Source: Balamuthia mandrillaris (Eukaryota). From it: a DNA stretch of 22,708 nucleotides. The notes below the pieces were generated by a model. That model searched no databases. It was not told where the DNA came from and saw only the letters and a list, made by a program, of their open reading frames with translations. Shown here piece after piece: positions 3 through 22,249 of this stretch. The stretch is from positions 248,001 through 270,708 of the forward strand of contig JAVKOQ020000039.1 in assembly GCA_031835245.2 (NCBI GenBank), written 5' to 3'. Numbering within the stretch: the first letter of the stretch is position 1; each line of letters starts with the position of its first letter. The translations under genes were made by a program, and so were the position numbers.

Positions 3-974
3 GTTCTTGTCCCTCGCTTTGATTCGCGCCTCCCCGAAGAAGAGTTGGCGGATGGACTTGCTGTGGTTCCACGCCCTGGCTTGGATGCTGAGAGACTGGC
101 TCTTGTCCTTCCGACCACGGAACTTCATCTTGAATCCAGTCCTGCCCGCCGCCAAGCTGGTTTTCACGCCGTTGAAGAAATCATCGACGGCGTCACTGCG
201 AATGTATCGAGGAGTTTCCAACACCCACGCAAGGCTCTTGTCCTCTCCGTTGAAATTGCCGTTATTCAGGAATTTCTCCCTGACTTGTTCCTTCATCTCC
301 TTAAGAGGCATTCCTTTATGTTCACGATGGAACTCCACGGCCTTGTTGTAGGTCCATCGTACTGTGCCGAACCACTTGGCCAGCGTCTTCTTTTGTTCTG
401 AGCGCGGATAAAGGCGGATCTTCTCCACTCGCCCCACTACCGGTTTCTCCTCTCCGTTCTTGCCTTTTTTGGTGAGCTGTACGGCTGGGCGAGACGGAAC
501 GAGTCCCTCGATGAGGCCTAACAAGCCTTTCTGGTTTTTCTCCTCTCCTTCCTTCTCCTTCTCCTTCTCCTTCTCCTTCTCCTCTTCCTCTTCCTCCTTC
601 TTCTCCTTCTCCTTCTTCTTCTCCTCCTCCTCCAACACCTTTTCTCCGTTAGGAATGTGCTTGCAGGCGGTGAACCATCCTGAACCACAGGCAAAGGGTT
701 CTTCCAAGCACAAGGCTTCCGGGCGTATTGATCTTCTCCCGATTTCGCTGGAAAACTGGTTCCAAAAGGGCTGGGCAGGTGCAGCCTGCGGCCTACCACG
801 CTTCTGTGCCCTTGCCTGAGGTGCCGCTGGGGCGTTTTCCGCTCTTCTTTTCCGAGTAGCAGTGGAAGTAGCAGAAGTAGTGGCGCGACCCCCTTCCTTG
901 TGAACCCGACCGAAGTGGATGGCCAACCCGTGAGAGGTAGCAAACTTTTTTCCGCACTGTGGGCAACTTGCCAT
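3..974 (-). CDS. Fanzor2/TnpB-family RNA-guided endonuclease, N-terminal 324 codons (runs off the window's left edge)
   Basis: Manual translation from ATG 974 is stop-free to the edge, so the ORF track misses it. It reads MASCPQCGKKFATSHGLAIHFGRVH (C2H2), a Glu/Lys tract, then VEKIRLYPRSEQKKTLAKWFGTVRWTYNKAVE (HTH_OrfB_IS605-type TnpB start), AWVLETPRYIRSDAVDDF and FKMKFRGRKDKSQSLSIQ, typical TnpB/Fanzor2 motifs. The RuvC catalytic motifs lie outside the window. Confidence 0.88.
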   Translation of the reverse strand, partial: MASCPQCGKKFATSHGLAIHFGRVHKEGGRATTSATSTATRKRRAENAPAAPQARAQKRGRPQAAPAQPFWNQFSSEIGRRSIRPEALCLEEPFACGSGWFTACKHIPNGEKVLEEEEKKKEKEKKEEEEEEKEKEKEKEKEGEEKNQKGLLGLIEGLVPSRPAVQLTKKGKNGEEKPVVGRVEKIRLYPRSEQKKTLAKWFGTVRWTYNKAVEFHREHKGMPLKEMKEQVREKFLNNGNFNGEDKSLAWVLETPRYIRSDAVDDFFNGVKTSLAAGRTGFKMKFRGRKDKSQSLSIQARAWNHSKSIRQLFFGEARIKARDKN

Positions 975-1007
975 TCAGGCCAGCTTCCAGCAGCGTTGTG
1001 GAAGAGG

Positions 1008-1558
1008 CGCACAGAGGTCCATGATGCTGTTCTTTTTTAAACAAAAGAAATCATTAGTGAGTGGTTGGTAACAAATTTTGTTTCCATCATCAAAAAATGT
1101 AGTGAGCGAGCAGAGAAAAAAGAACGCTACCTTTTCAATCGGAGCAGTGCCCCTGCCTGCGGCTGAACCGCTTCGGTTTCCATCTCTGCCTCCTTCCGCT
1201 GGTTTCCTCCTTGTGTAGTAGAAGCGTAGCAATCAGAAATACGGTGGTGCGTGGAGCTGCGTGGATGTGTGTGTCTGTGTGTTTACTTTTGAAAAGAAAG
1301 AAAAGAAGAGAAGAGAAGAAAAGAAAACGAGTAGCAGAAAAATGTCAAGGCGACTGGCGAGTACCAAAAGTTTATTGGCGGCAGCAGCAGCATGAGCATC
1401 CATTCCATTCACCCCACCCCACAACCCACCCTACCACTTTGCCGACGTAGGAGAAGGAAGGGTTGTTTTGGCGGGAAACATGCTCATTGGCCCAAAAGAC
1501 TAATGTCGTGATTTCTTTTTTCGTTGTCCTTAGATCCTATGATCTTTGCGCCGCCTTA
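1008..1558 (-). mobile_element. Left end and 5' non-coding region of the Fanzor element (copy 1)
   Basis: About 550 bp highly similar to 21476-22022. Homology ends abruptly after plus-strand GCCGCCTTA in both copies (minus strand TAAGGCGGC). No transposase ORF is seen between this end and the Fanzor ATG. Confidence 0.8.
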
Positions 1559-1651
1559 TTTTGTATCTGGGCGGGAAAAAAAGGCAAACACCACCCTCCT
1601 TGTGCAAACCTATACTGAGAAAGGAAGAAAGAAAGAAAGAGGGCAGCAGAC

Positions 1652-2172
1652 ATGACGGTAACGTAAGACCACGATTGTTGTTGTCAAAGGGTCTCTCACT
1701 TGGCTATTTCAGTCGTTAGCTGGGCCACGAGGGGCATACGCTAGCCAAGAAGGAGCAGAAAAAGTGTTCTTGGCAGAAGGGCGGACGGACGGGAAATCCA
1801 GCAGCTTAGCGTGGGTCCTGTCTCAGCTACGGGAGATACGCGCCCAAACTAACAGGTACTTTAGCCTCATAGTCCCACCAGCCTTCCCCTGTTCTCTGCC
1901 GAAACATTCAATGTATGAAGAAATGCTCACCTTTGTCCATCAGCTACTTCAGTGAACTTGTTAACGCAGAGAAGGCATCGCAGGCAAACGCCAACGGTAA
2001 GCTAATAAAAACCCTCTCTGCGGTTCATTCTTTAACGTTACTGCATACCGCAGAAAATGAGGAGGCGGAAGAGGAAGACGAGGACTCGGAAGACGAGGAT
2101 GATAGCGAAGCACAACCAACAACCAAAGAGGATTTAAGGAAACAAGATAAGAGGACAAAGCGCGCAGATTAA
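1652..2172 (+). CDS. Small acidic protein, probable KEOPS/EKC subunit Gon7-like (~106 aa; exons 1652-1657, 1713-1855, 1944-1996, 2054-2172)
   Basis: GT-AG splicing gives MTSLAGPRGAYASQEGAEKVFLAEGRTDG...VLSQLREIRAQTNSYFSELVNAEK, then an acidic tract and a basic tail. This resembles Gon7 as recalled (Y-x3-G-x-EK-x-F strand, amphipathic helix, acidic tail). The first exon is uncertain. Confidence 0.5.
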
Positions 2173-2556: not shown

Positions 2557-5432
2557 TCAGTCATGTTCCTCGCTGGCAGCAGCAACGGGAAATATAAAGT
2601 CAGGGTTAGGTAAGAACTCATCCTTCACAAAAGTGTAAGAGATGCAGTGGTGGCGCAACCACTGCTTGGTCTTAGCTTTGAGTGGCTCTGGTTGCTTGTC
2701 GACGTGGTCCCAGTAGCGGTCATTTGTGACGATTACAGCTGAGTGCCTCTTGGCGTACTCAATGCAGTAGCTGTCATCATAGTCCTACAGACAAGCAGTA
2801 GTATGGTTTAGAAACGTAGGGTGAAGTATCAAAGTTGAAGAAGGAAGGTGGCATACCTGTGGCGGCGTTAGCACTACAAAGCCATCATCAACGAGTTTCT
2901 GAAGTAGAGGAAGGTCGTTGGCCATCGGCAGAAATTCTACCAACTTAATAGCACCTTGCCCTGGCTTACGCGTAAGGTAATGCTGGGGCAGAAACGCCAC
3001 CACGAAGTGGCCACGCTGTTTGTAGTAGTCGATGGCCAACTTAATGCCTTTTACCGAAAATTCTTTCTGGCGACCATGCCGCTGTTCCCGTTCAGCAAGT
3101 GGGTGTAGATCATATTTTGTTTTGTTTGCATTTTCCAAATTAACCACACAGAATAGGCGATAGACTACAAACCACAAGGGAAATGAGGAACGTACAACTG
3201 CAATGTTGGGGCCATCAAGAACCACCATTATTTTCTTCCGTTTCTTTCGGCTACGCTGCCTCCGCTGTTTGCTCGCTTGACCTGACGGCTGTTGGTTTCG
3301 AGTAACTTGTATTGAATCTGTAGGTACAACAGGCAGAATACCAGCCCCAAGACAACCGGAAGGCGATACCTCCTTTAGTCCAATGGTAAGCTTGGTGGAA
3401 AAATACAAGAAGAGAAGCAGCAGCAGAAGAAGAAGAAGAAAAACAAGAAGAAGGTGTAAAGATAAAGAAAACGAAAAAGAGGGTACCTGTGCCTCCGGGT
3501 TGTCTGCTACAAAAGGAGAAATGGGGCTGGATTGGGCATTTAAAGGCACAAGGGAAGGGGTGGCAGCGCTTCCTGTGTTAGGGTCGCAATTGGTAGAGGC
3601 AGCCTTGGTCGAAGGTTGACAGTCCATAAGGCTCTCTACTTGCCTCTGTTGGTGCTGCAACAGCTTCTGACGTTGTAGACGTTCCCTCTCCATAACGAGC
3701 CATCGGATGTGCTCTTCCTCTTGTTCCTGAATTCGTTTCTTTGCAGCTTCGAGCTCTTCTGGAGAGAGCGGTTGGGGTGCTGGAGACATGGACGTAGTTG
3801 AAGCAGTCGTTTGGTGTTGAGGTTTGGCTGGCAGAGACACGACTAGGGAGTCCCCCAGCAACGTCAGGAAAGGCAGTTTGCCTACGTTCGTGGATAATAA
3901 ATCCTTTATGATTCTTGTGTTTTGTTTGTCTAAGTCTACCAATACCCGCCAGCTGGGGTGTTTGTGAGCGCCACCGAGTGGGCAATTGCTTTCAAACGGC
4001 CCCAAGATCTGCCCATAGGTAAAGCCTCCAGCGCTTCTGTTAGGATGAACATTATTAATCCTATTATTAGTCTTGCTGCTCTTATTTCTTACTTTAGTGA
4101 AAAAAGGGATGTGATGCACGAACCTGGGGACTAGCACTTGTTCGTCCTTAACGAAGGTATTATGGACTGAAAATACAGCATTATTAACATCCTTGAACAT
4201 GGCCGGAGCTCCAACGTTGTGACTTTGGCCACCGCCAGTTGGTAGCTGGGGTAACTCGTTGTTCTGGTCCAGGTGTTGAGGACCGGATTTAGCCAATTCT
4301 GTTGGCGTCTCGTCCAACACAAATGCAGCCTTGCCATTGTTGTTGTCATTGTTCTCTGCATTTGTAGCTGCCTCTGCTGAGCGTGGGGATGTCGCTGAAT
4401 CATTCTCTGGCTGTTGGTAATGTACACCAGACCAGAGGATAGTTTCTTCTTCCATTTCGTCGCTTTCGTCCTCTCCAAGATCTTGCAGGCCTTCCATTGC
4501 TGCTGCCGTCGTTGTTTGCGAGTGGGAACTTCTTGCACTTTTTCTTGCAGCGGAGGTGTCATCCTTGCTGCCAGTTGTCACTACTGGCTGTGGTTCTTCG
4601 CTCTTCTTCAGAATAGACAGCCGTCTCTCTGTTTGAGCCGCAGAGGCCTGGGTGAGCAGCTTTCCAAGGCAGATGTTGGGAAGATCTTTGTAAAGATTTG
4701 CCTTGCCGCGAATATTACAATTGGGATAGGCCACACGATATTGATGGTGGTGGACATCCTTGGCGTTGGCGTCCAAGTAGCAGTGCTTCACCACGCTGTG
4801 CCCTACCACTTTGCCATAGGTAAAACCGCCACGAGATCGCGGTACTAGCACTACTTCTCCTGCATTGAACTTGTTGGAGTGGCGGAAAGTACTACTTCCC
4901 ACTGTTTCACATTACATTCCGTACCACCACACCACCCAACACGCAAACGCAAACGCGAACGCGAACACGAACCAATAGCACACGTGACATCAAGAACAAA
5001 CACAACAACGCAACTTGGTAAGGCAAAGAGAGCAAAAGAAATCCGAATAAAAGACTTGTTGTTAAGATACAAACCATCTTCAGCAGTTGGGCACTGGCCA
5101 AGAGCACGCTGCTCTTTCTCCTCTTTTTGCTTATCCCCCAAGGAGAGCCTGCGCGAGGCACGCCTGTCTGATCCCGTTTGGTTGATGGCGACAGGGGCGA
5201 TGACTTGCTGGGTTGAGACGGGTGCTGCTGTGTTGTGGGGACGTCCGCTGTTTCTTGCTGGTTTGCCTCGTCCTCTACCTCGGGTGGAAGAGGGAGGAGA
5301 ACTGGCGGTGTCCAACTCTTCCAGCACCACTGGGCTCCTATTTTTGTGGTTGCCGTGCAATTCGGGGCGGGGCTTCCTACGACGGCGCCGCTGAACAGCA
5401 GGCTTGGCGTTGTGGCTGGCTTGCTTTTGCAT
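2557..5432 (-). CDS. Zc3h12/Regnase-type NYN (PIN-like) ribonuclease with two N-terminal SH3/Tudor-like repeats (~771 aa; exons 5432-5075, 4901-4124, 4036-3487, 3372-3196, 3081-2857, 2784-2557)
   Basis: The spliced C-terminus reads VVLDGPNIAVRHGRQKEFSVKGIKLAIDYYKQRGH...VLTPPQDYDDSYCIEYAKRHSAVIVTNDRYWD...CISYTFVKDEFLPNPDF, the Regnase NYN motifs (DGxN, YDD, TND). All introns are GT-AG and phase-consistent. Confidence 0.88.

Positions 5433-5436
<4 letters not shown>

Positions 5437-5474
<38 letters not shown>
5437..5474. repeat. (TC)n/(GA)n microsatellite immediately upstream of the NYN gene ATG
   Basis: Perfect dinucleotide run seen directly. Confidence 0.95.
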
Positions 5475-5477
<3 letters not shown>

Positions 5478-5881
5478 GGGTTGTTGGGTGGGTGGTTGCA
5501 ATTGTTGTTGTTTGCAGTTGCTGTAACTTGGCCCAGTTGCTGTTCTTCTTGTTGTTGTTTTTTTTTGAGGGGGTTGGGGGTTGGGGGGTTGGGGGTGTTG
5601 GGGGGGGCAGAGCGTGACTGCGGGTGGCGTTGAATATTTTTCACTCTGGCACAACATAATAGGTCAAATGGAAGCCACCGCAAACAACAACAAGAAGAAA
5701 GCAAGCCATCACAATTGCAACCACCCGCCCACACCCATCCAAGAAATACAGGCATTGCAGGCCCACTGAGCAACAACGAAAACCTCTTGGCTAACCACAA
5801 TGTTCTCTCTTTTATTTATTGCAAACAACAAATAAACGAGAGTGTGTGACGAGAGCTTAAGGGATTTTATCTTCGTCTGCA

Positions 5882-5931
5882 TTACACAACGACACGGGCC
5901 TGTCCCATTGGTTCCAACCAATTTAGAACAA

Positions 5932-5981
<50 letters not shown>

Positions 5982-7311
5982 AGTGGTAAGAGTGAGGAAT
6001 GATAATACTGGAGGAGGTAGGACGTACAGGGGTTTTGACAACACAATCGCCGCCATGCTTTTTAATTTCTGCCCGAATAGCCTCTATCGCAGTCTCCAAA
6101 GAGCTGATTCCACGCTCGTGATCTGTGGAGGAAGTAACGAGAATATACTCGGGGGAACACACCAATTGCACCTTTGAAGAAAACAACGCAAAAGAAATGT
6201 TAAGCGCTGTGAACAAACAGGCAGCATACACCATGCCACCATGCTCAAGAGCAAACCTTAATTGGCGACTCAGAGCTGCACTCCTGACCGGCCCTTAGGG
6301 CTGGTTTTATGGCGTCAATACCCTCATAGCTGAAACACGTTACTTGGATATCAGCCTGAACCTTAACAGGTTGAGAACCAAGGCGATGCTGGATGGCTTT
6401 CAAGAGGGTATCCTTCAGAATTTCGTCCACCTCTAGGCCCTCAAATATGTCCTCCCCGCTGCATACAGAGTATAGGAAAGACCCCAGTCATTGTAGAATT
6501 AAGCAATAGGCAACCAAACCAACAACAAAACAAACGAGGAAAACAGGAGAAGGAAAGGAATGGGAATGGGTATGGGTATGCACCTGGCTGCCTTCTTGAA
6601 GGCATCATAAGCGTGGCCATATTTGCGGTAGAGGGGCCAACCGAGTTGTGCGTAAAGTTCTTCCATGGTTTTGGGGGCGGCTCCCTCCGGAACCTCTTGT
6701 GTATCAGCAACATGGGCCATAATGCTGTGCACTGTCTTTGACTTCATGAACTTTTGGGTGCATTCTGCGATGTCCTCCTCCTTTAGGTTTTTCTTGGATA
6801 AGTCGATGTAGCCTTGTTTGGTGTGTGTTTTTCATCATTTTTTTTCAAGTGTGGCGTTGTTTTTGTTTTGTTGCGTTGCGTTGTGTTTTTAAAGAATACT
6901 GTGAGAAAGCAGCGAGGCAGAGGTGGGCAGGCAGGCAGGCAGAGCGTGGTGAGAGCTACCACCCAGCTCACCCTCGCCACCATTTATAGAAAAGGTAGAG
7001 AGGGACAAACCTTTTTCTTTGTCCACCCTGAGCACTTGCAAGACCTCCTGTTTTCCAACGCGGATGTGCTTGTTGACAGAGCGCATTCTTCTTCTAGAGA
7101 GCTCTGAAAGCAGGATGATGCCTTCCTTGTTGCCATACTCCAGGAGGGAGACGAACGCACCGATGGTGGAGATTCGGTTCACTCTAACCATGACTAATTG
7201 GTCCACTTCCGGGTACTCCTCTTCATACATACGGCACTGCTCGAACTTCTTTTTGGTGCCCGTTTCAGCCTCTTCTATGAGGGCATCCGACAAGGAAACT
7301 GTGTTTTGCAT
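5882..7311 (-). CDS. EIF2S1: Translation initiation factor eIF2 alpha (~297 aa; exons 7311-7011, 6812-6584, 6458-6257, 6171-6028, 5899-5882)
   Basis: [17 protein letters not shown]...[24 protein letters not shown] (Ser51 loop)...[15 protein letters not shown]...KSKTVHSI...[15 protein letters not shown]...[17 protein letters not shown]. The GT-AG introns are phase-consistent. Confidence 0.96.
5934..5974. repeat. (GA)n microsatellite in the last eIF2-alpha intron
   Basis: Perfect dinucleotide run seen directly. Confidence 0.95.
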
Positions 7312-7644
7312 GTTGGTGGTGTTGTTGTTGGTGTTGTGAGGGAGGGAGGTTCGTAGGGAGTGGCTGCTTGGTTTGTGGCAGAGGGGGTGGTGGTGAGTTT
7401 TCTGTTTTCTGCTTGCCGCCAGCAGGGCTTAGGGCTTTGTGAGTCGATATTTTTCTCAAAATTTGTTCATTTTCCCCTATTTTTCGATTTGTTGTAATTC
7501 AAGTGATTATTGTTGACGACCTTCGATAAATCATCCCAAGCAGCAAATTCGAGGAGGAGGAGGAGGAGGAGGAGGCTTGAAGCAAAGCTCGAAGAACAAG
7601 GAGGAGGAGGAGGAGGCTTGAAGAGCGGTCGTAGCTGTGGCGCC
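7312..7644. promoter_or_regulatory. Short divergent intergenic region, probable bidirectional promoter (eIF2-alpha / SET gene)
   Basis: The two predicted ATGs (7311 minus, 7645 plus) are head-to-head 333 bp apart. There is an AT-rich core near 7445-7530 and (GGA)n runs. Function is inferred from layout only. Confidence 0.5.
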
Positions 7645-10600
7645 ATGTGGAAAAGGCGACAACCTGCTGCTGGCCCTACCGCTGCTCCTCTTTCGGACCA
7701 TAACCCAACCAGCGCGGGCAGTCCACTGGCTGGCTGGAGTGACGCCAGGAAAAGGCAAGACCTCATTCTCTGTTGTTCTCGTGTTGTGTCCTCCAAATCG
7801 GAACCTTTGCTGACTGTACGGAAAGGGCCTATGTCTTGCTAGACTCCAATCCCAATGCCTACTATTACCGCTTCAATGCGCCTGGAGAGATGCCTCGCTA
7901 TGGACCGTGGTCTGAGGAAGAGAAGAAACTGTTTCTCAGCAAGCTTGCTGAATCAGAAGGGGAAGTTAAACAATGGGGTGAGCCCTTCCTTCAATCCGTT
8001 TGGTTGGTTGGTCGGTCGGTCGTTTGTTTCGTGTCGTTCATTTTTGTACTAATGGGTGTTGGTGAATGTGGTGGGACAACTTGCAGGCCTATTTTCAAGA
8101 AGCATTCCAGGGAGGGTGGGCTACCAGTGCAGCAACTACTACCGCTTGCTTGTACAGCGGGGAGAATTGCAGAGCTCAAGTTATGTCAAGGACGACGAAG
8201 GGCAGATCCATTATGTTGGAAAACAGAGGGGTAATGGTCGTCGGGGTGGCCCTAACAAAGGGTGCCCCATGACCCATGGTCTTGCAACACAACCCCACAC
8301 CAGTTCTTACTCCTCAGACCCTCTATTTCATGGCACCGGAAAGAAACCCCAGTCGAAGAAGAAATCAAACAAAAAGTGCAAGCCACGAGGCATCCAACCC
8401 AAAGAAGCTCTTTCATCGGTTGTATTCCCTTCTTCATCGGAAAGCCTGGCCGACGAAAGACAAGCAGCATCACTCAACGCCTATCATCTACACAGTCCTA
8501 ATGGCGGAAGACTTATTGAGACACAGCAGCAAACATCATTTTTAAAGAAAATGGTAACAGTGGAGCATCTGCCTCCACAAAACTTTATCCATCTCACTTT
8601 CAAGGAGGCTAGTGGGAATCAATCAGATTTTGCTGGAAGCCATATTCCTATCTCTGACTTGGAGCTTTGCTGTCTTTGTGGATCCAGCGGGATTGGCAAA
8701 GACCAAGCCTGTTTGCTTTGGTGCCATGACTGCAGCGAGGTACCTCACTCATCTCTTTAGAATCTCAGTTTTTCAACATAGTGCCTATTCTCTACTCTCT
8801 GCTCTCCTCGCGTGCTCTCTCTCTCTCTCTCTCTCTCTCTCCGTTATCTTTAACTTATTCCAGTAACAAAACGCCTTGCGGCGGTTCAGTGCTACCATTC
8901 CTATTGCCTTTCCACAGAGCTTCGCCTATACGGAGAGAAAAAGCGTCACTGGCGCTGCCCCGACTGCAAAGTATGCGAGGTGTGTAAGGATCCCGGAGAC
9001 GAGGATCGCCTACTTGTTTGTGAGCGGTGCGACGACGGCTTTCATACATTTTGCCTACAGCCTCCGCTACTCGAAATCCCTTCAGGGACTTGGTATTGTG
9101 ACAGTTGCGCCGATAATCCCCCTGCTATAGTGACAGAGAGCTCAGACATAGACTTTGATCGGCTACCACAACGAGTGTATGCACGGGTTGAGGATAAACG
9201 CTCTGCTCCGAAGGCCCACCTTCATGCCACGAATCGGTTGTTGGAACAACCGAGAATATCCATGACTCGAGAACAGCAGAGACAGTTTGAAGGATTATTG
9301 TTTGACTTGTATGAAATGCAAGCTCAAATAGCCTCCCTCGACTACCGCTCGGATCTTGCTGGGCTCAGTTATGAGGAAGCAGAGCCATTTGGAAAGAATG
9401 ACAGAGCGGTGGAAGAAGAACGAGAGAACGAGGCTGAAGCCACGCTTAAACAGGACGTTGATCAGCGACCTGTCTTGGAAGATAGGTGTTGTTTCTGTTG
9501 TAGCTGTTGTCCAGATGTAACCCCTCAGCCTCTCCTCGCCCCACCTATGTTTGCTATCGGAAAAAATGACAGTAGAGAATGCACCTTCTGTGGCCAAAGA
9601 GGGGATAGTATGCCTTGCCAAGAAGGGAGACTACTTCCCCTAACCACAGATAAGTGGTGCCATGCCAATTGTGCAAGGGTATTTATGTCCTTCTGATTCA
9701 CTAAGTTTCCTTCGGCTAGATTCTTACTTTTTTGTGTCACTGTGTTTTTTTGCGTGGTTCCGGATCTAGTGGTCTTCCGAAGTTTATGCATGCCCAGATG
9801 GTGGGCTCATGAATGTAGAAAAGGCTGCAATGCGTGGCAGGAATATGGTATGTTACTTGCATGTAGATTCTTGCTTTTCCGCGTTTGCTCGCTTGCTCGC
9901 TAGGCTGACCTCTACCTATGAGTCCAGAGGTGCTCGCATTGTGGGAACAAAGGTGCCACCATTGGCTGCGCTGTGGCTAAATGCAGCAAAACTTATCATT
10001 TTATGTGCGCTAGGCAAGCTGGATGTCTCTTCCTATCGAACAACTGCACTTTTTGCGCTGAAGACGCTCAGACAAGAAGTACCCAGTCACTACTAGATGC
10101 CTTTGCTCCTTTATTGCCCCGCCAACAAGCCCTCTTCCGTAGAGTCTATGTTTTACGCAAAACGAAAGTCTTGGCAACCTCCTTGCCCGACGATGATACC
10201 CTTCTGGAACTCAAAAAAGAGGATCCAACTCTATTTTCAGAGAATGGAACAATACCTTATTCTGTTGCCTCTCAGCCCCTAGTTTATGAAAGACGCGTTG
10301 GAGGGTTGACACTGAGCTTCCTTGGCATTATCGTTTATGAATATCCCGCCTTCCACTCGGATACTACCCTCTATCCCGTCGGTTTCAAATCCATACGCAC
10401 TTTTTGGAGCATGACCCAACCGTGGAAGAAATGGTAGCTTCCTTCTGCTCATCTATCCTCGCTTCCTCCCACGATTCATCCTAACGTCCTATTTTTTGGT
10501 TACAACAACCAAGTGCTTACACAAATGAAATCCACTTCGACCGACGCAATAATAGTCCTGTCTTCATCGTTACTTCCTTAGACGGTGGCAAGTCTGTTGT

Positions 10601-11766
10601 GGCCTCTTCCCCTGCAGGTTTTTGTGCTGGGGTTTCTCCCATCCCCTCTTTTGCCTTTTCCCTTTTTCTCGTTCTCCCTCTTCAATCCGCTACCTATTGG
10701 GCTGTGGCAAGAGTTGATGAATGGCCTGTTGCTAAACGATGCTAAGACCATCTTTCGTGTTAACACAACAACAAAACAGAGGCATGGGGAAAAATCGTGT
10801 ACGCCGTGCAGCAGCAACAGGAGAATACAGAGCAAACTGTCATAACTAACAGCATTGCAGAGCACTATTTTGGACTGTCTGCACCTTGGGTAAAACAGCG
10901 ATTGGAATATCTTGAAAATGCCACTCGGTGTAGAAGGTTGTTTCATTCAGTTATTTGTTTTTTTTTAATGCTAGCTCACTCACATGTATTTTGTTGCCTT
11001 ATGCCCAGATATCAGTTTCAGTACCGAGATGTAACTCAAATAACAAGTGTGTTGCCAACCCCAAATGTAAATGGCTGTGCACGGTGTATTGCCTTTCTAA
11101 AGGGCAAACAGAAAAAGACCAAATATTTGTATGGGCAACCCATTTCTAGTTTTATGGCTCGGATGGAGAAAGTCCGCCAGGAGTATACAGCAGCATTGGT
11201 TCATTCTGACCATGCACTAAGTATTCCTACCACTATTGAGTACAAAAAATTGCAGTCAAAACAGCGACGGCTGCATGTATATCGGTCTAATATTCATGAC
11301 TGGGGTGTATTTACATTAGAACCCATCAAGCCTAATGAAATGATTGTGGAATATGTTGGTATGGTTCCTTCTTGCTTTAGTCTGTCCTATGCTTACTAAT
11401 CCTCTCTTTACTGCTTAATTCTGTGCTGGTTCTTTTGCAGGAGAAATTATTAGGCAAAAGGTTGCTGATGAGCGAGAAGCTCAGTATTTCAAGCGTGGAA
11501 TTGGAACTTATATGTTTCGTCTTGATGATGACCTCATTGTGGATGCTACCATGAAAGGCAACATTTCACGTATGATGAACCACTGCTGTGAACCAAATGC
11601 AATTGCCAGGTTGGTAAAAATAGATGGAGAACCACACATAATTCTCTATGCAGCACAATACATTGCCCCAATGCAAGAAATAACTTATGATTATAACTTC
11701 CCAATTGAAGATATCAAAATCCCTTGTTATTGTGGTGCTTCGTCTTGTAGAGGCTTTCTTAATTGA
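7645..11766 (+). CDS. Trithorax/MLL (KMT2)-like histone H3K4 methyltransferase: Myb-like, 2x PHD, ePHD, FYRN/FYRC, WIN-like, SET, post-SET (~1074 aa; exons 7645-7754, 7826-7977, 8087-8739, 8890-9678, 9770-9847, 9928-10433, 10514-10617, 10780-10936, 11009-11358, 11441-11766)
   Basis: Myb-like: GPWSEEEKKLF...WGLFSRSIPGRVGYQCSNYYR. PHDs: CCLCGS..CHDCSECYHSYC..WRCPDC and CEVC..CERCDDGFHTFCL..WYCDSC. ePHD: WCHANCARWSSEV..GATIGC..TYHFMCA. FYR: LYPVGFKSIRTFWS and HYFGLS. WIN-like: GCAR. SET: SNIHDWGVF..EYVGE..NHCCEPN..EITYDY. Post-SET: CYCGASSCRGFLN. The exon total is divisible by 3. Confidence 0.93.
8815..8841. repeat. (CT)n microsatellite in SET gene intron 3
   Basis: Perfect dinucleotide run seen directly. 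Confidence 0.9.
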
Positions 11767-11769
11767 GAT

Positions 11770-12350
11770 AATAAATAAATTTATTTAAGAGTTTTTGTAT
11801 TCATACAACAATAAAAATGCTAAAGTAAAATACACATTGCACTGTGGTTTTTGCCAGGACTTGTACATTCTCTCTCATCCTTGTTTTCTAAACAAATGAA
11901 AGGTGTTGAATGAGTTTTCAGACTAGCTTTGCACAATATCTATTCTCCTCTTTTCTCTTTTTCTCATTAAAAGGAATGAATAACATGAATAGACAGGGCC
12001 AAGACGTATTATTCAAGAGGGAACAAGGGAACAAATGGTGTCAAAAGGGAAAGGTGAGGTATAAATAAAACAAAACTAACTAAAGAAAAAAAGAAGGAAG
12101 CAACAGAATAAAAGGAAGAAGCCAAGTGATGTGGCAGTAGGTCCATGTCACAAATGTTGACAGGAAGAAAAGAAAAGAAAGAGCTATTCTCCTTCCTTAC
12201 TAGCCTTATCACATTTCCTTTGCTTATTCTACGTTATTTCTAAGGATTGATGAAATGCAAAAGAACATCCATACTTCCAATTTGCTCTTATTGTCCATAA
12301 TCTCTATACTTGTTTTCAACTTTCCTTGCATTGTTCCCTTAAGTTCTTTT
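11770..12350 (-). mobile_element. Diverged inverted 3' fragment of the same LINE family, interrupted by a ~234-bp insert (11950-12183)
   Basis: The reverse complement of 12210-12340 aligns with 12773-12890 (GGAACAATG..GAGATTATGG..AAGAGCAA..TTGGAAG..TGCATTT..ATCAATC). The reverse complement of 11895-11935 matches CAAAG.TAGTCTGAAA.CTCATTCAACACCTTTCA. The left boundary is uncertain. Confidence 0.65.
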
Positions 12351-12607
12351 ATCATATAGTATATAGATTGTCAACAGAAAAAAAAGAATGGAATGAAAAA
12401 AAATAAAGAGTTGATATATTGGCAGGTCCTAGGACCCTGGTGCATTCCACTGGCAGTTGAGTGAGGACAGGATGATAACACCATGTTGGAGCCTTGGTGA
12501 GTTGTTTAAAAACCAGGTTATAATACACACCTTAAGAATGATATACTATTTATGGAAAACAGGTTTGGCCATTGTATAAATAAATTATGCTTTCTAGAAA
12601 GGATCTG

Positions 12608-13110
12608 AAACAGCAGAACACTTCCTGTTAAGATGTCCAAATCTTTGGGAAGATCGCTTTAGAATCTGGAGTGTGGACAATGGAAATGAAGAACAAGTCA
12701 GAAAGCTGATTATAAAGGACTGTACAACAAAGCTCTTGTCGAGCGGAAAGAAATGCAACAGAGATCAAGAGATGGAACAATGTAAGCAAAGTTGTAAAAG
12801 AGTCTGGAGATTATGGGCAGCAAGAGCAAGTTGGAAGCATGGAAGTTCTTCTGCATTTTATCAATCTTTGGAAGTAATGTAAAAGCAAAGAAAAGAGAAG
12901 AAAGGAAAGGGAAAGAAAAAGGATAGCAAGATGATACAAAGTTAGTCTGAAATCTCATTCAACACCTTTCACTTGTGAACTTGAATAACAATTGGAAAGG
13001 CATCGAGGATGAGGGAGTAAGAGAAGTAAAAGTACACTATGTATGTACAATGCTTACTTTTTATGTATAGATTGGTGTTGCTCTCAGAGCAAATAAACTT
13101 CTTATTACTA
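12608..13110 (+). mobile_element. 5'-truncated non-LTR retrotransposon (LINE) 3' end with 14-bp TSD CTAGAAAGGATCTG
   Basis: TSD at 12594-12607 and 13111-13124. Near-identical to 18603-19105. Encodes the ETAEHFLLRCP zinc-knuckle remnant. AATAAA is followed by a (TAC)n tail. Confidence 0.88.
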
Positions 13111-13167
13111 CTAGAAAGGATCTGCTAGGGCCATGGACACTTGCTGGTTGTGTTGAAGTGCATCATG

Positions 13168-13507
13168 TGTTGAAAAACTCCAACATAATAGCTCTTCTTC
13201 TCTTCCTGTCGACCTCTTCTTCATGCCTGTTGACCTAAGGAAACCTCTCCATGTCCAACTTCTCCTTTTTTGAACTTCTCTTTTCTTGTTGTTTTCTCTC
13301 TTTGCTCTTTTATGCTGATTCTCTGCTCTTCTTTCTTGGATAATTGTTCAGCTTAAATACTGCCTCTCCTTGCTTTTCCTCTTGGGACAAACTTGCAACA
13401 CTACACAAGATACCTTACTTTCACTTACACTCATTACTTTAGTAAATTAAGTTCAGGTCTTATATTTACTTTGTCTCAGCTATCATTCCCGTTCTGATTT
13501 TACAACA
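13168..13507. mobile_element. Solo LTR (340 bp) with 4-bp TSD CATG
   Basis: Inverted termini TGTTGAAAAA...TTTTACAACA. CATG at 13164-13167 and 13508-13511. Removing it restores the minus-strand frame PLDIARKIIKGIHDALQHNQQVSMALADPF. Confidence 0.8.
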
Positions 13508-13709
13508 CATGGATGCCTTTAATGATTTTTCGAGCAATGTCAAGAGGAGGTGGAAGTTCAACATATTGATCTGTGTCAGAAATGTTGGAGTCATCTTCCT
13601 TGAACTCTTCTCATTCACCAGGAAGAGGATAACACACAAGAAGGCATAAGACCAATTCTAATGCATCACATTATGTTATGTTTCTTTCAAATAAGATCTC
13701 ATGCTCACC

Positions 13710-13991
13710 TTAGAGCAGCATGATGAAGAAGTGGTGATATAGCTTACAGGAGCCACAGTCAATGTAGACATGTGCTGCACAGCAGGCAACATGAGTGGTG
13801 GACTTGTCATCTAATGTGATCTCTATGTTGTCAATGTGAGAAATGACAGTATAGTGGTGTTCACAGGACGCTGGATAGAGGGACTTTTCTGCCACTGCTG
13901 GAGAGATAAAAGAGTGAGATGCTTCAAAGTCTATGAAGGCTGTGGCACACTGACAGTTAAGGAGGATGGAAGCCATGATAGGAAGTTCCAC
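13710..13991 (-). pseudogene. Retrotransposon aspartic protease remnant
   Basis: ATAFIDFEASHSFIS is a degenerate gag-asp protease active-site motif. It lies downstream of the gag-like ORF. Confidence 0.7.
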
Positions 13992-15087
13992 TATGTCCTC
14001 ACAGTCGTCTTTTACATCATCATTATCATCTATATCAAGACCTGGTGACTACAAGGCTGAAAGTGTCCATAGCTCTGAAAGAGAGAATTAAGATCAATGA
14101 TAGTAAGCTCTAATTGCCTTGGATCTCTCAGGCATGGTAGCTTCCATGAACTCCTACTTTGCAGTAGCATCTAGTTTGTTTGTAGATGGCTAGTTGGTGC
14201 CAAAGGGAGGCGAAACTGGTGAAAGAGACAGTGATGAAGGTGGTGATGGTGCTGAAGCTAGTTGCTGAGACTGTGATGTTTGCACCTGACTAGAGTTGAG
14301 TGCTGCAGGCTGGTGGGGTTTACACTAATGACCAGGATGCTGTTAGAAAGGGCAAATAACACGAACGGACGGGGCCAAAACGTATTATTGAATAATACGG
14401 GTCATCATGTTCAAGGTTGTATACAAATAGACGAGTCAGAATCTTGGAAGAATTCAATGGAGAGTCCAAAGAGGTAGGTCATGTCAAAGAAAAGCTCTGT
14501 AAAGGATGTATCAGCTGCATGATAAGGGGTGTGCACATGGGGTGGACTGTCAAAGAAGAGGCTCTCTTTGCCTTCTTTGACCTTCTCAGGCTCAGTGTGT
14601 TGTTGCCATTGGGCTTTGACCACCTGGTTGAGCTCAATGCACTCAAGGCAGTCCAGAACCTTGTTCACAATGTGGATGAGGGTGTCCATAATGGTTGTCT
14701 CATAGTACTTAAAGATGGACTTGTTGGTGTGCTCAAGAAGGACATTAACAGCTTCTATGAGGTAGGAGATATAGAAGGTTTGAGGCTCAAGGCAATCAAG
14801 CAGTTTGGAGAGGTATTGGAGGTTTTTCTGCTCCACTGGCTGGTAAGCATGATCCAGTTCCTGGATGTGATGCTCTGCAGAGTAGAGTTCCCATTTTGTA
14901 GCTGTTAATCGGGCAAAGGTTTGATCCTCATTGACCATCTGGTGTTTGTCCAGAGATTTGAGGAGCTTGTTTCATGTGAAAGTTCTGGAGGAGATAAATT
15001 GTTTCAATGTTAAGTACCATACTTGTCATCATCACTCATTGTTGTGAGGCTGAACCTTTTCTACTACTAAGAGTTTGCTTAAAAAAA

Positions 15088-15256
15088 TATTGATGGGATA
15101 AACTTTGTGGATCAAGAAAGGAACAGCACATAAGTGACTCTGGGTTTATTCACAGGAAAAAGTGGTGGACCAAAGTGTGTGATTTGAATATGTCATGAGG
15201 AAAAAGAGAAAATAAAAGGGGTGAATTTGGGGTATCCAGGGAGAGTGTTGTTGACA
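15088..15256 (-). repeat. 5' LTR of the Gypsy-like element (short, 169 bp)
   Basis: Similar to both ends of 17633-18099 (TAAGTGACTCTGGGTTTATTCACA, GGACCAAAGTGTGT, AATTTGGGGTATCCA, TGTTGTTGACA). Contains a minus-strand AATAAA and directly precedes the gag-like region. Confidence 0.72.
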
Positions 15257-15299
15257 GGAAGTCATAATTTTTATGACTTTTTACATCGTTGGTTTTCAA

Positions 15300-15420
15300 A
15301 CAATTTGGCCTCTTGAACTTGCTTCATAGCCTTCCCATTAAGTCTTTACTCCTTATCATGAGCTTTCTTTCCTTGAACTATTACCATTGATTTCTTTGCA
15401 TACCTAATGTTCCCATTCAG
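15300..15420 (-). pseudogene. Possible non-LTR reverse transcriptase fragment
   Basis: NIRYAKKSMVIVQGKKAHDKE*RLNGKAMKQVQEAK resembles the LINE RT segment preceding KYLG. It is short and decayed. Confidence 0.35.
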
Positions 15421-16179
15421 TTAGTTAATAGCACTTGACCATAGTACTAATCTGCAATAATGAAGCAAGGGGTGTCAAAAGGGAGGAAGGGAGGTGTAAG
15501 ACCACCAATGACCTAAAAGGAGCATAGGTACAGCTAAGAGAGACAGTTCTCAAGAATCATGTGAATGCTAAGACAATGAACAATCTCAAAGTTGTACTCT
15601 GAGATAAGGAGAGCCCAACTGTTGAAGATGTAGTTTTATTATCGGAATTATTATTTTGATAAAAATTGTTTTCATTAAAATTGAAAGTCAATTATGCAAA
15701 GGCCCCAATGGTAGTCATTGCTGTTGAAGCTTTCATTGTTTCATTCTCTGCCTGAGATAGACATTGCAAAAGGGCATAGATTGCTACACAGGAGAAAAAT
15801 AAGAGGTCAGAAAGAAATAGCAAACTCTCTTGCAAACCAATGAGAGCATACCCATTACTACTCTGAACCATAATGCATCGACTGCAACCATACTCATGAC
15901 CATAAGTAAGGTTAGAACTTTTACATGAGGGGTGGAACTTGCATCACTGTTATCCCTTTCCCTTTGCTTGGGAATGAGGTTACAGCACGTCTGCTTTCAA
16001 TTCCTTTCAGTTTTTGGTTTTAACAACCATTATTGTTCCCATCATTCTTGCCCAACATACTTTTCTTTTTGTTTCCACCTTTTTTTTATATAAAGTTACC
16101 AGTGACACAACACAACCATCACACACCTATTTTGTTTGTTTGTTTGGCTTTTGTTTTTGTTTTTTCCTTTTTTTTCATT

Positions 16180-17260
16180 ATGGAAGAGAAGAAAAAAAGA
16201 TTTGCAGAGATTTATGGGTGGATTTTTGAAAGAATGGTTCCATTGCAGCAGCTTTCAAGGTTGTACAATGGAGAAGAAGATGCTCTGACCTTCTATTGAG
16301 TCCAATGGAGATCAACTCATGGGCTTACAAAGTGAACAGGAGTGAAGGTGCTTAGTAATCCTCTCACCACCCTTGATGGAGTGAAAGTGTTGGTGCTGAC
16401 AGTCAAGAAAATGAAGAATGGAGTCCTTGAGGTTGCACTCCGTGAGAATCTTCACTGCTCTGGTAGCTTTGCCTGTACTCCTCCAAGCAGAAAGAAAAAC
16501 AAAAAAAAAAGGACTGTGGAGTGCAAAGCTGTTGGGTGGTGTTTAGAGACAAGCTGAACACTGCCTACATCTACATCCAAAAGGAAGCCCAAAGCCACAG
16601 ACCTGGGTTTTTCTGCAATGCCTATGACGCCTGCACTTTGACAATGGCTCTGCCAGATGGATGGGCAAGGAGCAAAAGAAGACAGGATGAAAGGAGGGGA
16701 GGAGCAATGATGACGCATGAGCTGCAACAACTATTGCTGGGGGGTGCTTGTGAGCTGGTCAAGGATGCTATTGATGTACCAACTGTGATGGAGATTGCCA
16801 CTATAATCCACAACAGAAGGAAAAAACTGCAAATCAGCAAGAAAGGCCAAACCAAAGCAGAAGCCCTCCAAGAGGCCTGGAATCAACATGAGCTGGCTTC
16901 CATTATCCTTTTTCCACCTTTGGAGAGCTGTGAAGCATACATCCTTGATCACACTGCAGCCCATCGGCCATGGATGATGTTTTTGATCACACCTTAGGCA
17001 GTCACTGTGCTTCAGCAATGGGGTAAGGAGGTAGTCAGCCTGACTTGGGATGGAGCTGGCCTGTTGCCTTCACTGTGGCTAGCAAGGAACGAGCTGTGGT
17101 TGTGTGCTTTTTTCTTTTGTCTGTTCATCACTTTTTTGAAACACAGACCACAATGATCTCTCTCCAACACCTACATGGCAACCCTTTGTAATGATCAACA
17201 AAGACAAGGTGGAGTGCAACAGGGCAACAAGCACTGGCTTTCAGGTGTTGACTTTCATAC
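16180..17260 (+). pseudogene. Mutator-like (MULE) DDE transposase relic
   Basis: Frame-disrupted translation from ATG 16180. It includes VLQQWGKEVVSL, then GWSWPVAFTVASKERAVVVCFFL (17048-), then WQPFVMINKDKVEC (17176-; ATC AAC may be ATC GAC after CpG decay). These MULE core motifs appear in the expected order. Confidence 0.65.
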
Positions 17261-17632
17261 AAACAAAGAAAAAGTGACTGTGCCCAGTGTGACAAAAAAA
17301 AGACTAGCAAAAAGAACCAAATAAAAAAAATAAACAGTTTTTCCTTGCCCATCCTCTCCTCTCTCCCCCCCCTCCCCCCCTCAAACTACGGAGGAAGAAA
17401 TGGGGGAGCAAACACTTGGTGACAGTTGCACAAAAATAATAGGTTGGTATAAATAATTACATATTAGGGACAACTACCTGAGGGATGGAACTTTAACGAA
17501 GTGTAAGGACCTTTTCTGTTGTGGGATGGGATGTTTACCCGATTTGCCTCTTTGACAAACCAACTCTACACAATGAAAACATACTATCACTACTTTTAAA
17601 CATGACAAAACCAAAAGTAAGATCAATGGTCT

Positions 17633-18099
17633 TGTTGATGGGGAATAACCCTGCGACTCAAGAAAGGGACGGCATGTAAGTGACTCTGGGTTTATTCACA
17701 TGAAAAAGGGGTGTGGACCAAAGTGTGTACTTTGAATATATATATCTCGAGAAAAAAGGGAAAATAAAAAGGAGTGAAAGAATTTGGGGTATCCAAAAGG
17801 AGGAAGGAAGTGGCAGATGGCCACACTCTCTTTTGCCTTTTTACTGAGTGTTGAATCAGCAGCGAACACCCCCTGCTTCCTCACCATTCCCCTCTCTTTG
17901 TTGCTCACAAAGAGAACACCAGGAAAGAAAAGAGAGGAGAGAGGTGGAAGCAGAATGCCAAGGAGAAAGGAGGAATAGGCCAAGGGGAACAAGAACTGTG
18001 GGTACTGTGTGTTGTACCTTTGGGAGACAACAACTGCAAAAGAAGAAGGAGAAGCAGGGCATAAATATTACATACCTGAGGGTTCCTTTGTTGTTGACA
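17633..18099 (-). repeat. LTR related to 15088-15256 (long 467-bp version, no internal domain attached)
   Basis: Minus-strand termini TGTCAACA...CATCAACA. Shares both terminal blocks with the short LTR and has ~300 bp extra internally. No TSD is recognisable. Confidence 0.68.
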
Positions 18100-18431
18100 A
18101 AATCATAACATGGAGGAATAGAACAAAGTGAACCAGTCCCTGTGCTTGCTCTCACTCTTCTGCAGTTTAACTCCCTCTTCTCCCACAACACTGAAGAAAC
18201 TAACACAGATAACAAAGAAGAAAAGATACTCGCATGATGCCTTATCCTCAATTTTATCTCTTTGATAAAGAACTGCAGGCCTTTAGCTAGCCTGTTCAAG
18301 GACAGCATAAGCCACTTGGAAGTCTTTCTATCTGTCCTCTAGGGTCTTTGGACAAGGGCAAGAGCAATGGCAATAGTGCATGGTTGTGTTTGTGCCAGTT
18401 TACAGTCTCCATAAATTCTATATGATGGAAA

Positions 18432-19111
18432 CAAATGGAAGATGTTTGGTTGGACAACAACGGAGCTTAGTGATTACCAACCCAAGGAAAGAACATTTGA
18501 TGAATGCTATTCGTTGTGGTGGACTGTCCATTGGAAAAAAGTGAGGAGCCATTCAGCAGTCTGAGGAGGATAGTAAGTGCCCTGCATGTGGTGCTGAGGA
18601 AGAAACAGCAGAATACTTCCTGTTAAGATGTCCAAATCTTTGGGAAGATCGCTTTAGAATCTGGAGTGTGGACAATGGAAATGAAGAACAAGTCAGAAAG
18701 CTGATTATAAAGGACTGTACAACAAAGCTCTTGTCGAGCGGAAAGAAATGCAACAGAGATCAAGAGATGGAACAATGTAAGCAAAGTTGTAAAAGAGTCT
18801 GGAGATTATGGGCAGCAAGAGCAAGTTGGAAGCATGGAAGTTCTTCTGCATTTTATCAATCTTTGGAAGTAATGTAAAAGCAAAGAAAAGAGAAGAAAGG
18901 AAAGGGAAAGAAAAAGGATAGCAAGATGATACAAAGTTAGTCTGAAATCTCATTCAACACCTTTCACTTGTGAACTTGAATAACAATTGGGAAGGCATTG
19001 AGGATGAGGAAGTAAGAGAAGTAAGAGTACACTATGTATGTACAATGCTTACTTTTTATGTATAGATTGGTGTTGCTCTCAGAGCAAATAAACTTCTTAT
19101 TACTACTACTG
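18432..19111 (+). mobile_element. 5'-truncated LINE 3' end with 14-bp TSD CTATATGATGGAAA
   Basis: TSD at 18418-18431 and 19112-19125. Encodes KCPACGAEEETAEYFLLRCP (non-LTR ORF2 C-terminal zinc knuckle) through to VWRLWAAR. AATAAA is followed by a TACTACTACT tail. Confidence 0.88.
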
Positions 19112-19989: not shown

Positions 19990-20345
19990 TCTTTCCAAAA
20001 TTGGTTCCTTAAAAGTAAAGACCAGGTAGTAGGCAAATCCCTTTCTTTTTTCCCCCAGATCTGATAAGGAGAGGAAACCTCATCTTTTTTCATACAAACA
20101 AGAAGAACCTTAATCAATAGCAAAGATTGCCAGGAAGAAAATGTTTTAAACCTGGACATAATGCTATTAATGTGTAACTTGAAAAAAAAGAGAGAAACAG
20201 CAATGCTCTTGACGGTTGCTATTTCAGAAAAAGAAAAGGCATTCAAGGTTTGTGTTCCTTCATAAGTGTATATAGCCATAGCTTATTAATCAATCTTGTT
20301 GAACAGAACGAAATATCCCCACAATTCCAAGCAATTTGTTGCATA
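19990..20345 (-). pseudogene. Possible LINE APE-endonuclease N-terminal remnant
   Basis: MQQIAWNCG followed, after frameshifts, by an ECLF(F)SEIAT-like segment resembles the APE WN and xLxE motifs. Heavily decayed. Confidence 0.3.
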
Positions 20346-21343: not shown

Positions 21344-21475
21344 CTGAATGTAACAAGGGAAATCGCAGTTAAAAAAGGAGGAGGAGGAGGTGGTAAGTGC
21401 TTGTAACATGAAAAAGCAGATCAAAATGTTTCAGGCAGTGTTGGCAGCTCAATCAGCCTGGTAGCCACACTCAGA
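21344..21475 (-). ncRNA. Putative Fanzor omega-RNA scaffold region (decayed, possibly partial)
   Basis: Located at the ORF 3' end and presumed right end, where TnpB/Fanzor guide RNAs are encoded. An imperfect 9-bp inverted repeat pairs 21349-21357 with 21400-21408. The minus strand ends in TTCAG. There is no expression evidence. Confidence 0.35.
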
Positions 21476-22020
21476 TGCACAGAGGTTCGTGATGCTGTTC
21501 TTTTTTAAACAAAAGAATTCATTAGTGAGTGGTTGGTAACAAATTTTTTTTCCATCATCAAAAACTGTAGTGAGCAAGCAGAGAAAAAGGCATGCTACCT
21601 TTTCAATCAGAGCAGTGCCCCTGCCTGCAGCTGAACTGCTTCGGTTTCCACCTCTGCCTCCTTCTGCTGGTTTCCTCCTTGTGTAGTAGAAGTGTTGCAA
21701 TCAGAAATATGGTAGGGCGTGGAGCTTCGTGGATGTGTGTGTCTGTGTGTTTACTTTTGAAAAGAAAGAAAAGAAAAGAAGAGAAGAGAAGAGAAGAAAA
21801 GAAAACGAGTAGAAGAAAAGTGTCAAGGTGAATAATGAGTATTAAAAGTTTATTGGCAGCAGCAGCAAGAGCATCCATTCCATTCACCCTACCCAACCCA
21901 CCACTTTGCCCTCACAGACATGGGAGAAGGAGGGTTGTTTTGGCGGGAAACATGCTCATTGGCCCAAAAGACTAATGTCGTGATTTCTTTTTTTTGTTGT
22001 CCTTTGATCTTGGGCCGCCT
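21344..22020 (-). mobile_element. Internally deleted non-autonomous Fanzor element (left end + Fanzor C-terminal remnant + putative omega-RNA/right end)
   Basis: 22022-21476 is a copy of the 1558-1008 left end. It is fused to CASECGYQAD*AANTA*NILICF, which with CpG decay reversed reads CASECGYQADRAANAARNILIRF (TnpB/Fanzor zinc finger and RuvC-III). The right boundary is inferred. Confidence 0.78.
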
Positions 22021-22249
22021 TACAATTTGCCCTGTGCGAGTGCAACAGCTAATAGGTTGGTTATTTTTAAGGAAAGCAGACGAAATTCCCACCTAAAAAC
22101 GATCAACGTCGCCAAGTGCTTGGAAAAGTTGGTGGGGGGGTTGCTGCGGAGGGGAAAAACTAGTAACCAAGAAGAAAGAAAGAGCCAAGGCTGCTGCCCT
22201 CCTTGTTGCGAGTATCTTGCTTAATCCTCCCTTTCCATTTCCATCAACA

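Follow-up and report, generated by a model that had tools for sequence, protein, structure and literature searches.

A 22,708-nucleotide stretch of Balamuthia mandrillaris DNA (contig JAVKOQ020000039.1; the whole stretch analysed is hereafter called the window) contains, at one edge, a left element end and the initial 324 codons of a Fanzor2 gene, which appear to belong to a likely young, multi-copy family of transposase-less elements, of which the window copy is itself likely interrupted just past the edge (a reading to which we assign a probability of about 0.68). Judging from a gene model, the window locus is probably not a working enzyme. To our knowledge, Fanzor2s are compact, natively nuclear RNA-guided nucleases, only a handful of which have been tested. 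Balamuthia adds an amoebozoan Fanzor2 family that was not found in print within the searches made; its many young copies and strain differences make it a usable case for studying the role of Fanzors in their own hosts and the movement of Fanzors that lack TnpA.

An open reading frame at the window edge

The minus-strand frame beginning at the ATG at 974 is free of stops for 324 codons, down to the window edge at position 3, with an in-frame stop immediately 5' of the ATG. The earlier note on this DNA had described this frame and quoted three motifs from it, all of which are present, KIRLYP beginning at residue 185 (nt 422). Residues 185-215 match the Pfam domain HTH_OrfB_IS605 (PF12323; 40.5 bits, cut-off 21, E 1.9e-10), and the NCBIfam model IS200_TnpB matches the WED/REC part (E 6.9e-6, far under its cut-off). 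The ORF had been called hidden; it is indeed missing from default ORF lists, because the frame runs off the window end, but gene model P0010 already holds residues 11-324, letter for letter. The features referred to below are as follows.

3..974, minus strand: Fanzor2 ORF, N-terminal 324 residues, reaching the window edge before RuvC (translation, PF12323, match to P0010)
3..437, minus strand: WED and REC lobes, residues 180-324 (PF12323, NCBIfam IS200_TnpB, structure match)
534..641, minus strand: Glu/Lys-rich low-complexity linker, varying in length among paralogs (sequence, paralog comparison)
669..773, minus strand: PFWN...GWF motif, residues 68-102, equivalent to the Fanzor2 RuvC-R subdomain (profile of relatives, ApmFz2 alignment)
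789..854, minus strand: basic patches RKRR (residues 41-44) and KRGRP (58-62) (sequence)
900..968, minus strand: weak C2H2 zinc-finger-like motif, residues 3-25 (Pfam zf-C2H2)
975..1558, minus strand: 5' non-coding part of 584 nt, comprising left end, promoter-like block and leader (sequence, copy comparison)
1017..1102, plus strand: 86-nt GT-AG intron, antisense to the Fanzor gene, copy of origin not assigned (RNA reads)
1470..1478, plus strand: GGCGGGAAA motif, part of a block of 63 nt that is the same in the two copies (sequence comparison)
1551..1558, minus strand: element left end, TAAGGCGG (depth drop and loose ends)
21377..22022, minus strand: second, decayed copy with an internal deletion and no right end

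The ORF had also been described as intronless and as keeping its CpGs, unlike the decayed transposons in the window. The former holds for 3-974, where neither of two raw RNA runs (X23 and X24) shows a joint with at least three reads, but paralog gene models place two introns in the 5' leader. As for CpG content, the observed/expected ratio of the ORF is 0.77, against 0.06-0.34 in the 1-kb bins of 11-22 kb; the neighbouring host genes at 1-11 kb likewise reach 0.55-0.74. The level in the ORF thus looks like that of its gene-rich surroundings, and CpG retention may reflect a gene-rich, unmethylated position instead of age.

Assignment to Fanzor2

The ORF almost certainly belongs to Fanzor2, derived from the IS607-linked pro-Fanzor clade; the family call of the earlier note is sustained by the HTH_OrfB_IS605 match and by the identity of the closest structure, the mimivirus Fanzor2 9B0L. 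The best database match to the ORF is a 644-residue 'Transposase [Balamuthia mandrillaris]' (91% identity), whose cluster has 10 members, nine named Balamuthia mandrillaris and the tenth being P0010, on contigs of 99-538 kb; P0013 and P0018 were found additionally. Twelve database models of the family carry the label Balamuthia mandrillaris 'transposase'. Intron-bearing neighbours, a spliced host gene beside the left end and paralogs on B. mandrillaris contigs of 68-538 kb place the family in a eukaryotic genome.

Fanzors and pro-Fanzors are defined, in the available part of Yoon et al. (PMC10711439), by two features, the RuvC-I motif DPG and a Glu that precedes a CxxC by six residues. The window ORF ends before these motifs, and the signature was read from the 12 database models: DPG is present in nine, the alternative Glu in eight and both in seven, the second cysteine pair and the RuvC-III motif in two each; all three catalytic motifs occur in one model (P0009), and all four features in none. 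PF12323, PF01385 and PF07282 are all found in P0009 and P0012 (PF01385 slightly under cut-off), and the NCBIfam model guided_TnpB scores 97-98 bits, slightly under its cut-off of 100. The WED-REC-RuvC-ZnF architecture of TnpB and Fanzor is represented by PF12323 in the window ORF, all three Pfam domains in paralogs, and the fold match.

The best PDB sequence match of P0009 is ApmFz2 (9B0L; E 1.1e-17, next 1.2e-6), and a 48-sequence family profile finds 9B0L at E 6e-43, versus 5.8e-17 for the next structure. An AlphaFold model of P0009 (pLDDT 76.5) retrieves 9B0L with Foldseek at 2.1e-17 and SpuFz1 at 3.9e-4. The structural alignment to 9B0L covers model residues 67-551 (Z 21.2, rmsd 4.8, 408 aligned); ISDra2 TnpB comes within 1 Z unit of 9B0L, and among the top rows the N-terminal domain is aligned by 9B0L alone. 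A compact REC like that of TnpB, an N-terminal domain with RuvC-R and thumb, greater similarity to ApmFz2 than to SpuFz1, and a TDG motif in none of 13 family sequences point to Fanzor2 rather than Fanzor1. ESM Atlas matches for P0009 (0.80-0.81) are leads only.

Metagenomic proteins reach up to 49% identity over the core (among the matches listed, the best 120 of 1197), the closest relatives in genomes are for the most part IS607 elements of cyanobacteria (28-38% identity), and canonical TnpBs are 23-27% identical. A quick tree of 70 rows, in which every fourth of the genome loci above L083 was retained and short or duplicate rows were excluded, groups the three Balamuthia rows (100) and puts their branch in an unresolved basal fork with NlovFz2 and viral and cyanobacterial groups; no donor is therefore claimed.

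N-terminal region and RuvC-R

Residues 3-25 weakly resemble a C2H2 zinc finger (Pfam zf-C2H2, 18 bits, cut-off 25.2, E 0.004), and their look-alikes in the ESM Atlas are small zinc-finger proteins (0.88-0.90, a lead only). When residues 1-40 were folded from the single sequence, no zinc finger formed; the five models disagree (pLDDT 47-80) and the best one is helix-free. The C2H2-like pattern occurs in none of the 169 non-Balamuthia relatives having at least 60 residues before WED. The RKRR and KRGRP patches may be NLS-like and AT-hook-like. N-terminal NLSs are common among Fanzors, according to the available part of PMC10530073.

The PFWN...GWF motif aligns over residues 68-81 with a profile of 85 relatives, at a score (11.1 bits) that 0 of 1000 shuffles reach, and is present in 39 of 59 proteins with a long N-terminus, seven of the 39 being Balamuthia rows. 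The family profile aligns its W-F motif with N82-S83-W84 of ApmFz2, and the alignment of the structure model with 9B0L starts at residue 67/53. In ApmFz2, Asn82 and Ser83 of RuvC-R contact the omega-RNA pseudoknot, as described in the accessible text of PMC11832414.

This subdomain likely arose by overprinting of TnpA, the IS607 serine recombinase, and in the Balamuthia element likely persists after TnpA loss, as suggested by reading frames in related loci. Among these (L001-L157), 98 of 157 contain the TnpA motif pair, and in 87 of the 98 the TnpA core lies inside the open +1 frame of the nuclease. Across distinct TnpA cores (225 nt) the +1 frame is open in 85 of 85 and the +2 frame in 0 of 85, and the W-F motif (xW[FY]) stands at a single register in 77 of the 85; in a canonical IS607 (L158) the +1 frame is interrupted by stops. 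A +1-overprint profile built from TnpA-bearing loci only ranks window positions 773-732 first, at a score (0.7 bits) that is not significant. Against a profile built from 87 TnpA proteins, none of the six frames of the 584-nt leader reaches 0 bits, so that the element lacks the TnpA in cis of an autonomous IS607EU. A TnpA relic suspected by eye in an alternative frame was ruled out by the TnpA profile; the TnpA-register frame has an upstream stop and no DRLxRFG. A limited literature search found no published account of the IS607 TnpA/RuvC-R overprint. That a RuvC-R motif outlives TnpA suggests that the motif is now retained for its own sake, and provides a data point on the origin of the Fanzor2 N-terminal domain.

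Left end, leader and second copy

Four runs aligned to 1-2400 show high depth up to ~1558 and single-copy depth beyond, with varied loose ends at 1555-1561. The left end starts with TAAGG at 1558, and the flanks of other copies diverge directly before the TA. Depth in X1 is ~7000-10000 over the ORF versus 20-85 beyond 1600, and at the terminus 1845 versus 54 in X7 and 147 versus 13 in X13; the multi-copy values are sums and do not give a copy number. Within the window the left end has no inverted partner. Scans for a right end or close copy yielded 365 pattern matches in viral contigs and 582 in metagenome contigs, none of them confirmed, and Rfam has no match in the window.

Gene models predict two sense introns in the leader, at 1275-1364 and 1027-1130. 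The GGCGGGAAA motif is presumably E2F-like; alternatively, it could be a transposase-binding repeat. This motif occurs three times in the window (1470-1478, 1570-1578 and 21942-21950; 0.08 expected), always at Fanzor left ends or adjacent flank, and two of the three sites are copies of each other. A CCAAT-like motif was rejected (2 found, 1.89 expected).

The second copy fuses a left end and leader (21477-22022) to the final 32 codons of the gene (21377-21472, with stops). Its leader is 89% identical to that of the window copy and has the same left-end 8-mer (22015-22022); 12 of 21 CpGs have changed to TG or CA, with one change in the opposite direction. As far as the available texts go, IS607 elements recombine at a dinucleotide core (PMC13565253), and TAMs often equal the left-junction motif (PMC10711439, PMC10530073), so the TAM of this family is predicted to contain TA, either alone or as TAAG/TAAGG.

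Multiple copies, probable youth and strain differences

The family is very probably young. The earlier note had proposed youth for the ORF, and this stands for the family: the window copy is 99% identical to its nearest paralog, its left end is absent at this site in two other samples, and it keeps CpGs whereas the second copy shows the CpG loss given above. Identity of the window copy within residues 180-324 is 97-99% with P0007, P0008 and P0009 and 90-91% with P0002, P0006, P0012 and P0013; paralogs, where compared, are 90-99% identical. P0002-P0018 form two subfamilies, 97-99% and 90-93% identical to the window copy. Parts of the element that lie far apart are joined in some DNA contigs and reads, which points to numerous derivatives with deletions or rearrangements.

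Single-copy contigs that cover the neighbouring gene in samples S1 and S5 extend for 241 and 247 letters left of 1584 in sequence unlike the window, and the left end is absent at this site; the S1 contigs likewise did not align to the element. These alleles are not clean empty sites, as the 10 nt separating the shared GGGCGGGAA from the element end differ as well, and therefore no target site is readable; a local rearrangement is a possible cause of the difference. Two other datasets were uninformative for this check: X3, which comprises spliced contigs, and X7, a strain that has diverged and for which the contigs listed begin at 1648. In Acanthamoeba, another amoebozoan, silenced elements carry CpG methylation (PMC12344493, available part), and by analogy repeats may be CpG-methylated in Balamuthia.

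State of the window copy

The first two exons of P0010 map to 1183-1133 and 1030-968. Past the window edge this model continues for 13 family residues, adds three unrelated ones and ends (16 in total), ~45 residues short of the RuvC-I DPG. Had the frame stayed open through RuvC, a gene model would normally include it, and the end of P0010 would represent a spliced escape, a deletion or an insertion. The window copy is thus probably broken just past the edge, before the nuclease domain, a break read from one automatic gene model (P0010) and not from DNA. The suggestion of the earlier note that this copy is potentially active therefore fails to find support, and a downstream break or loss of RuvC, which that note had named as counting against activity, is probably present, as read from P0010. 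A preprint, in its accessible part, calls the TE annotation of the Balamuthia genome fragmentary (10.1101/2025.02.25.640156).

Alternative readings

It is quite unlikely that the window copy is intact and able to cut, with the short and frameshifted models reflecting annotation or long-read homopolymer artefacts. The 324 stop-free codons, the near-identity to the nearest paralog (99%) and the retained CpGs would agree with an intact copy, and assembly errors could fake frame breaks in the models: X1 contigs have single-base deletions at ~3-20% of depth in at least nine places, paralog models often finish out of frame (one piece of window DNA is matched by the tails of both P0012 and P0008, each in its own frame), and the identical shifted tails of P0002/P0005 and P0007/P0012 could be systematic errors. 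However, P0010 departs from the family 13 residues past the edge, well before the point at which the other models shift frame near their C-termini. The window copy also has changes absent from most aligned reads at nt 73, 730, 1183, 1449 and 1537 (among the 40 of 79 rows listed), two of which are non-synonymous (residues 82 and 301), and upstream ATGs at 1183 and 1022 that are absent from the second copy. We favour an interrupted copy.

A different question, which either state of the window copy would fit, is whether a non-IS607 eukaryotic transposon captured the nuclease, as in 'Fanzor2*' elements, the carrier being a TA-duplicating cut-and-paste element with terminal inverted repeats (TIRs) or a Crypton-like TAWGG element. 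We consider such a capture somewhat unlikely. The absence of a TnpA remnant and the break of all flanks directly before TA are in its favour, as is higher X1 depth near the terminus; one read group has TATGG instead of TAAGG (loose end 1555), matching the termini of CryptonS (PMC13565253, available part), and Fanzor2s of molluscs and algae were captured likewise (PMC10711439, available part). The terminus nevertheless contains GG/GC cores like those of IS607 ends (PMC13565253, same part), both ends of multi-copy relatives from cyanobacteria carry GC or short cores like it, the omega-RNA scaffold end of NlovFz2 (TAAAGGCG) is much like the element left end, and that end lacks an inverted partner in the window. 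Domestication, in which zinc finger and basic patches would make the protein a host RNA-guided DNA binder and not a selfish nuclease, is highly improbable: the C2H2-like motif foreign to all 169 relatives, the promoter-like block conserved between copies and RNA covering the ORF are compatible with it, but the many near-identical copies and deletion derivatives, the left end missing from S1 and S5, the catalytic motifs kept in paralogs and the decayed copy nearby fit a mobile family rather than a fixed single gene.

Transcripts of the element

In the two raw RNA runs, of each of which 3-5% was sampled, 185 and 158 reads fall on 1-2400, with a depth of ~10-20 over the ORF, pooled over all copies. 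The only splice seen inside the element is the antisense intron at 1017-1102, supported by eight reads with six starts in X23, two reads in X24 and one contig in X11; the skip is present in 0 of 2108 X1 DNA contigs. The Fanzor2 family is thus transcribed in antisense. This intron overlaps the predicted sense intron at 1027-1130. Neither of the predicted leader introns has RNA joints in X23 or X24. Two plus-strand introns in X24 have opposite first-mate orientation, and the libraries appear unstranded; for these two reasons a sense mRNA is only putative. Were X24 stranded after all, the skip of 1017-1102 would instead have to be explained by a non-canonical event or by an expressed copy that carries the deletion. 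Skips of 238-394 and 332-438 in X11 contigs were rejected as introns (extra letters at the joint, no raw-read support, low depth). A literature search by title or abstract opening found no paper on spliced Fanzor antisense RNA.

Neighbourhood of the element

A small spliced host gene with an acidic tail (1648-2172, plus strand; introns near 1856-1943 and 1997-2053) begins ~90 nt from the left end. It presumably resembles GON7-type small proteins, and had no Pfam match in the two frames scanned; a tblastn Fanzor match at 1746-1844 within it (E 0.003-0.008) was treated as chance. Host genes at 2785-11766 encode a Zc3h12a-like NYN ribonuclease (minus strand), eIF2-alpha (minus strand) and a trithorax-like PHD/FYRN/FYRC/SET protein (plus strand). 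Adjoining these CpG-normal genes is a sharply CpG-depleted zone of decayed elements (11000-22000), which contains a 507-nt repeat (99%; 12607-13113 and 18602-19108), 40-nt inverted arms (11892-11931 and 12937-12976), as well as a frame weakly resembling a retroviral protease (13713-14048, E 0.0076). This zone suggests CpG methylation of repeats in the amoeba.

Proposed mechanism

By comparison with characterised Fanzor2s, an intact copy would encode a protein of ~570-600 residues that binds an omega-RNA from the right end of the element and its flank. The protein would find a short motif equal to the left-junction sequence, predicted to contain TA; the guide would pair with the empty donor site, which the D / alternative-E / D triad of RuvC would cut, and repair from the filled chromatid would restore the element. 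For movement itself, a recombinase or transposase would have to act in trans, as the 584-nt leader encodes neither. CpG methylation is likely the means by which the host silences copies, and old ones, such as that at 21.4-22.0 kb, would through it become CpG-poor relics.

A fuller version of this scheme, which we regard as unlikely in its entirety, would have a Fanzor2 lineage, mobile at present and adapted to its host, in which the serine recombinase was lost and the RuvC-R overprint retained, the rest of the overlap was replaced by a eukaryotic zinc finger and nuclear signals, and a spliced leader, a cell-cycle-type promoter and control by spliced antisense RNA were acquired, with at least one working nuclease copy whose TA-containing TAM would be unlike those of the nearest tested relatives.

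Relation to known systems

Amoebae, and the viruses that infect them, are known carriers of Fanzor2 (PMC3627910, available part). No paper on a Fanzor in Balamuthia was found, and the word 'Balamuthia' is absent from the searchable supplements of PMC10530073, PMC10711439 and PMC10432273. The earlier note had spoken of an uncharacterised family; this is apt for the Balamuthia host, but the biochemically tested NlovFz2 of Naegleria lovaniensis (PMC10432273), likewise a nuclear Fanzor2 of a protist with several loci, aligns over almost the whole length. Its database counterpart P0200, by eye near-identical to the tested protein (Saito et al. supplement), is 34% identical over 536 columns (E 1e-98), including PFW...GWF, WED, DPG and the alternative Glu, and the end of its omega-RNA is similar to the Balamuthia left end. 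In contrast to the Balamuthia ORF, NlovFz2 has neither the zinc-finger pattern nor the Glu/Lys tract, its TAM is 5'-CCG as opposed to the TA-containing TAM predicted here, and the quick tree gives no supported sister grouping with the Balamuthia rows.

ApmFz2 of mimivirus is the best match in both sequence and structure, with its W84 motif aligned, and its order of NLS, RuvC-R, thumb, WED, REC, RuvC and ZnF (PMC11832414, accessible text) is that of the Balamuthia family. It differs in being viral and IS607-encoded, in its TAM (5'-GGG) and in its low identity in the structural alignment (~18-21%). The Fanzor2* of molluscs and Chloropicon (MmeFz2, DpFNuc, BaFNuc) are, as here, TnpA-less elements of eukaryotic nuclear genomes, and their TA-containing TAMs, as far as described (TAG in MmeFz2), would fit the Balamuthia left junction; they have terminal inverted repeats and target-site duplications (PMC10711439, available part), whereas the Balamuthia element is known here from its left end only. 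With the pro-Fanzor IS607 elements of cyanobacteria and IS607EU (PMC10711439; ACa-1 and ACa-2 of Acanthamoeba, PMC3627910), the Balamuthia family shares DPG and the alternative Glu, PFW...SWF and a left end at which no inverted repeat is seen. Those elements carry a TnpA that overlaps the nuclease N-terminus in another frame (in the 87 of 98 loci described above), whereas the Balamuthia element keeps only the overprinted motif.
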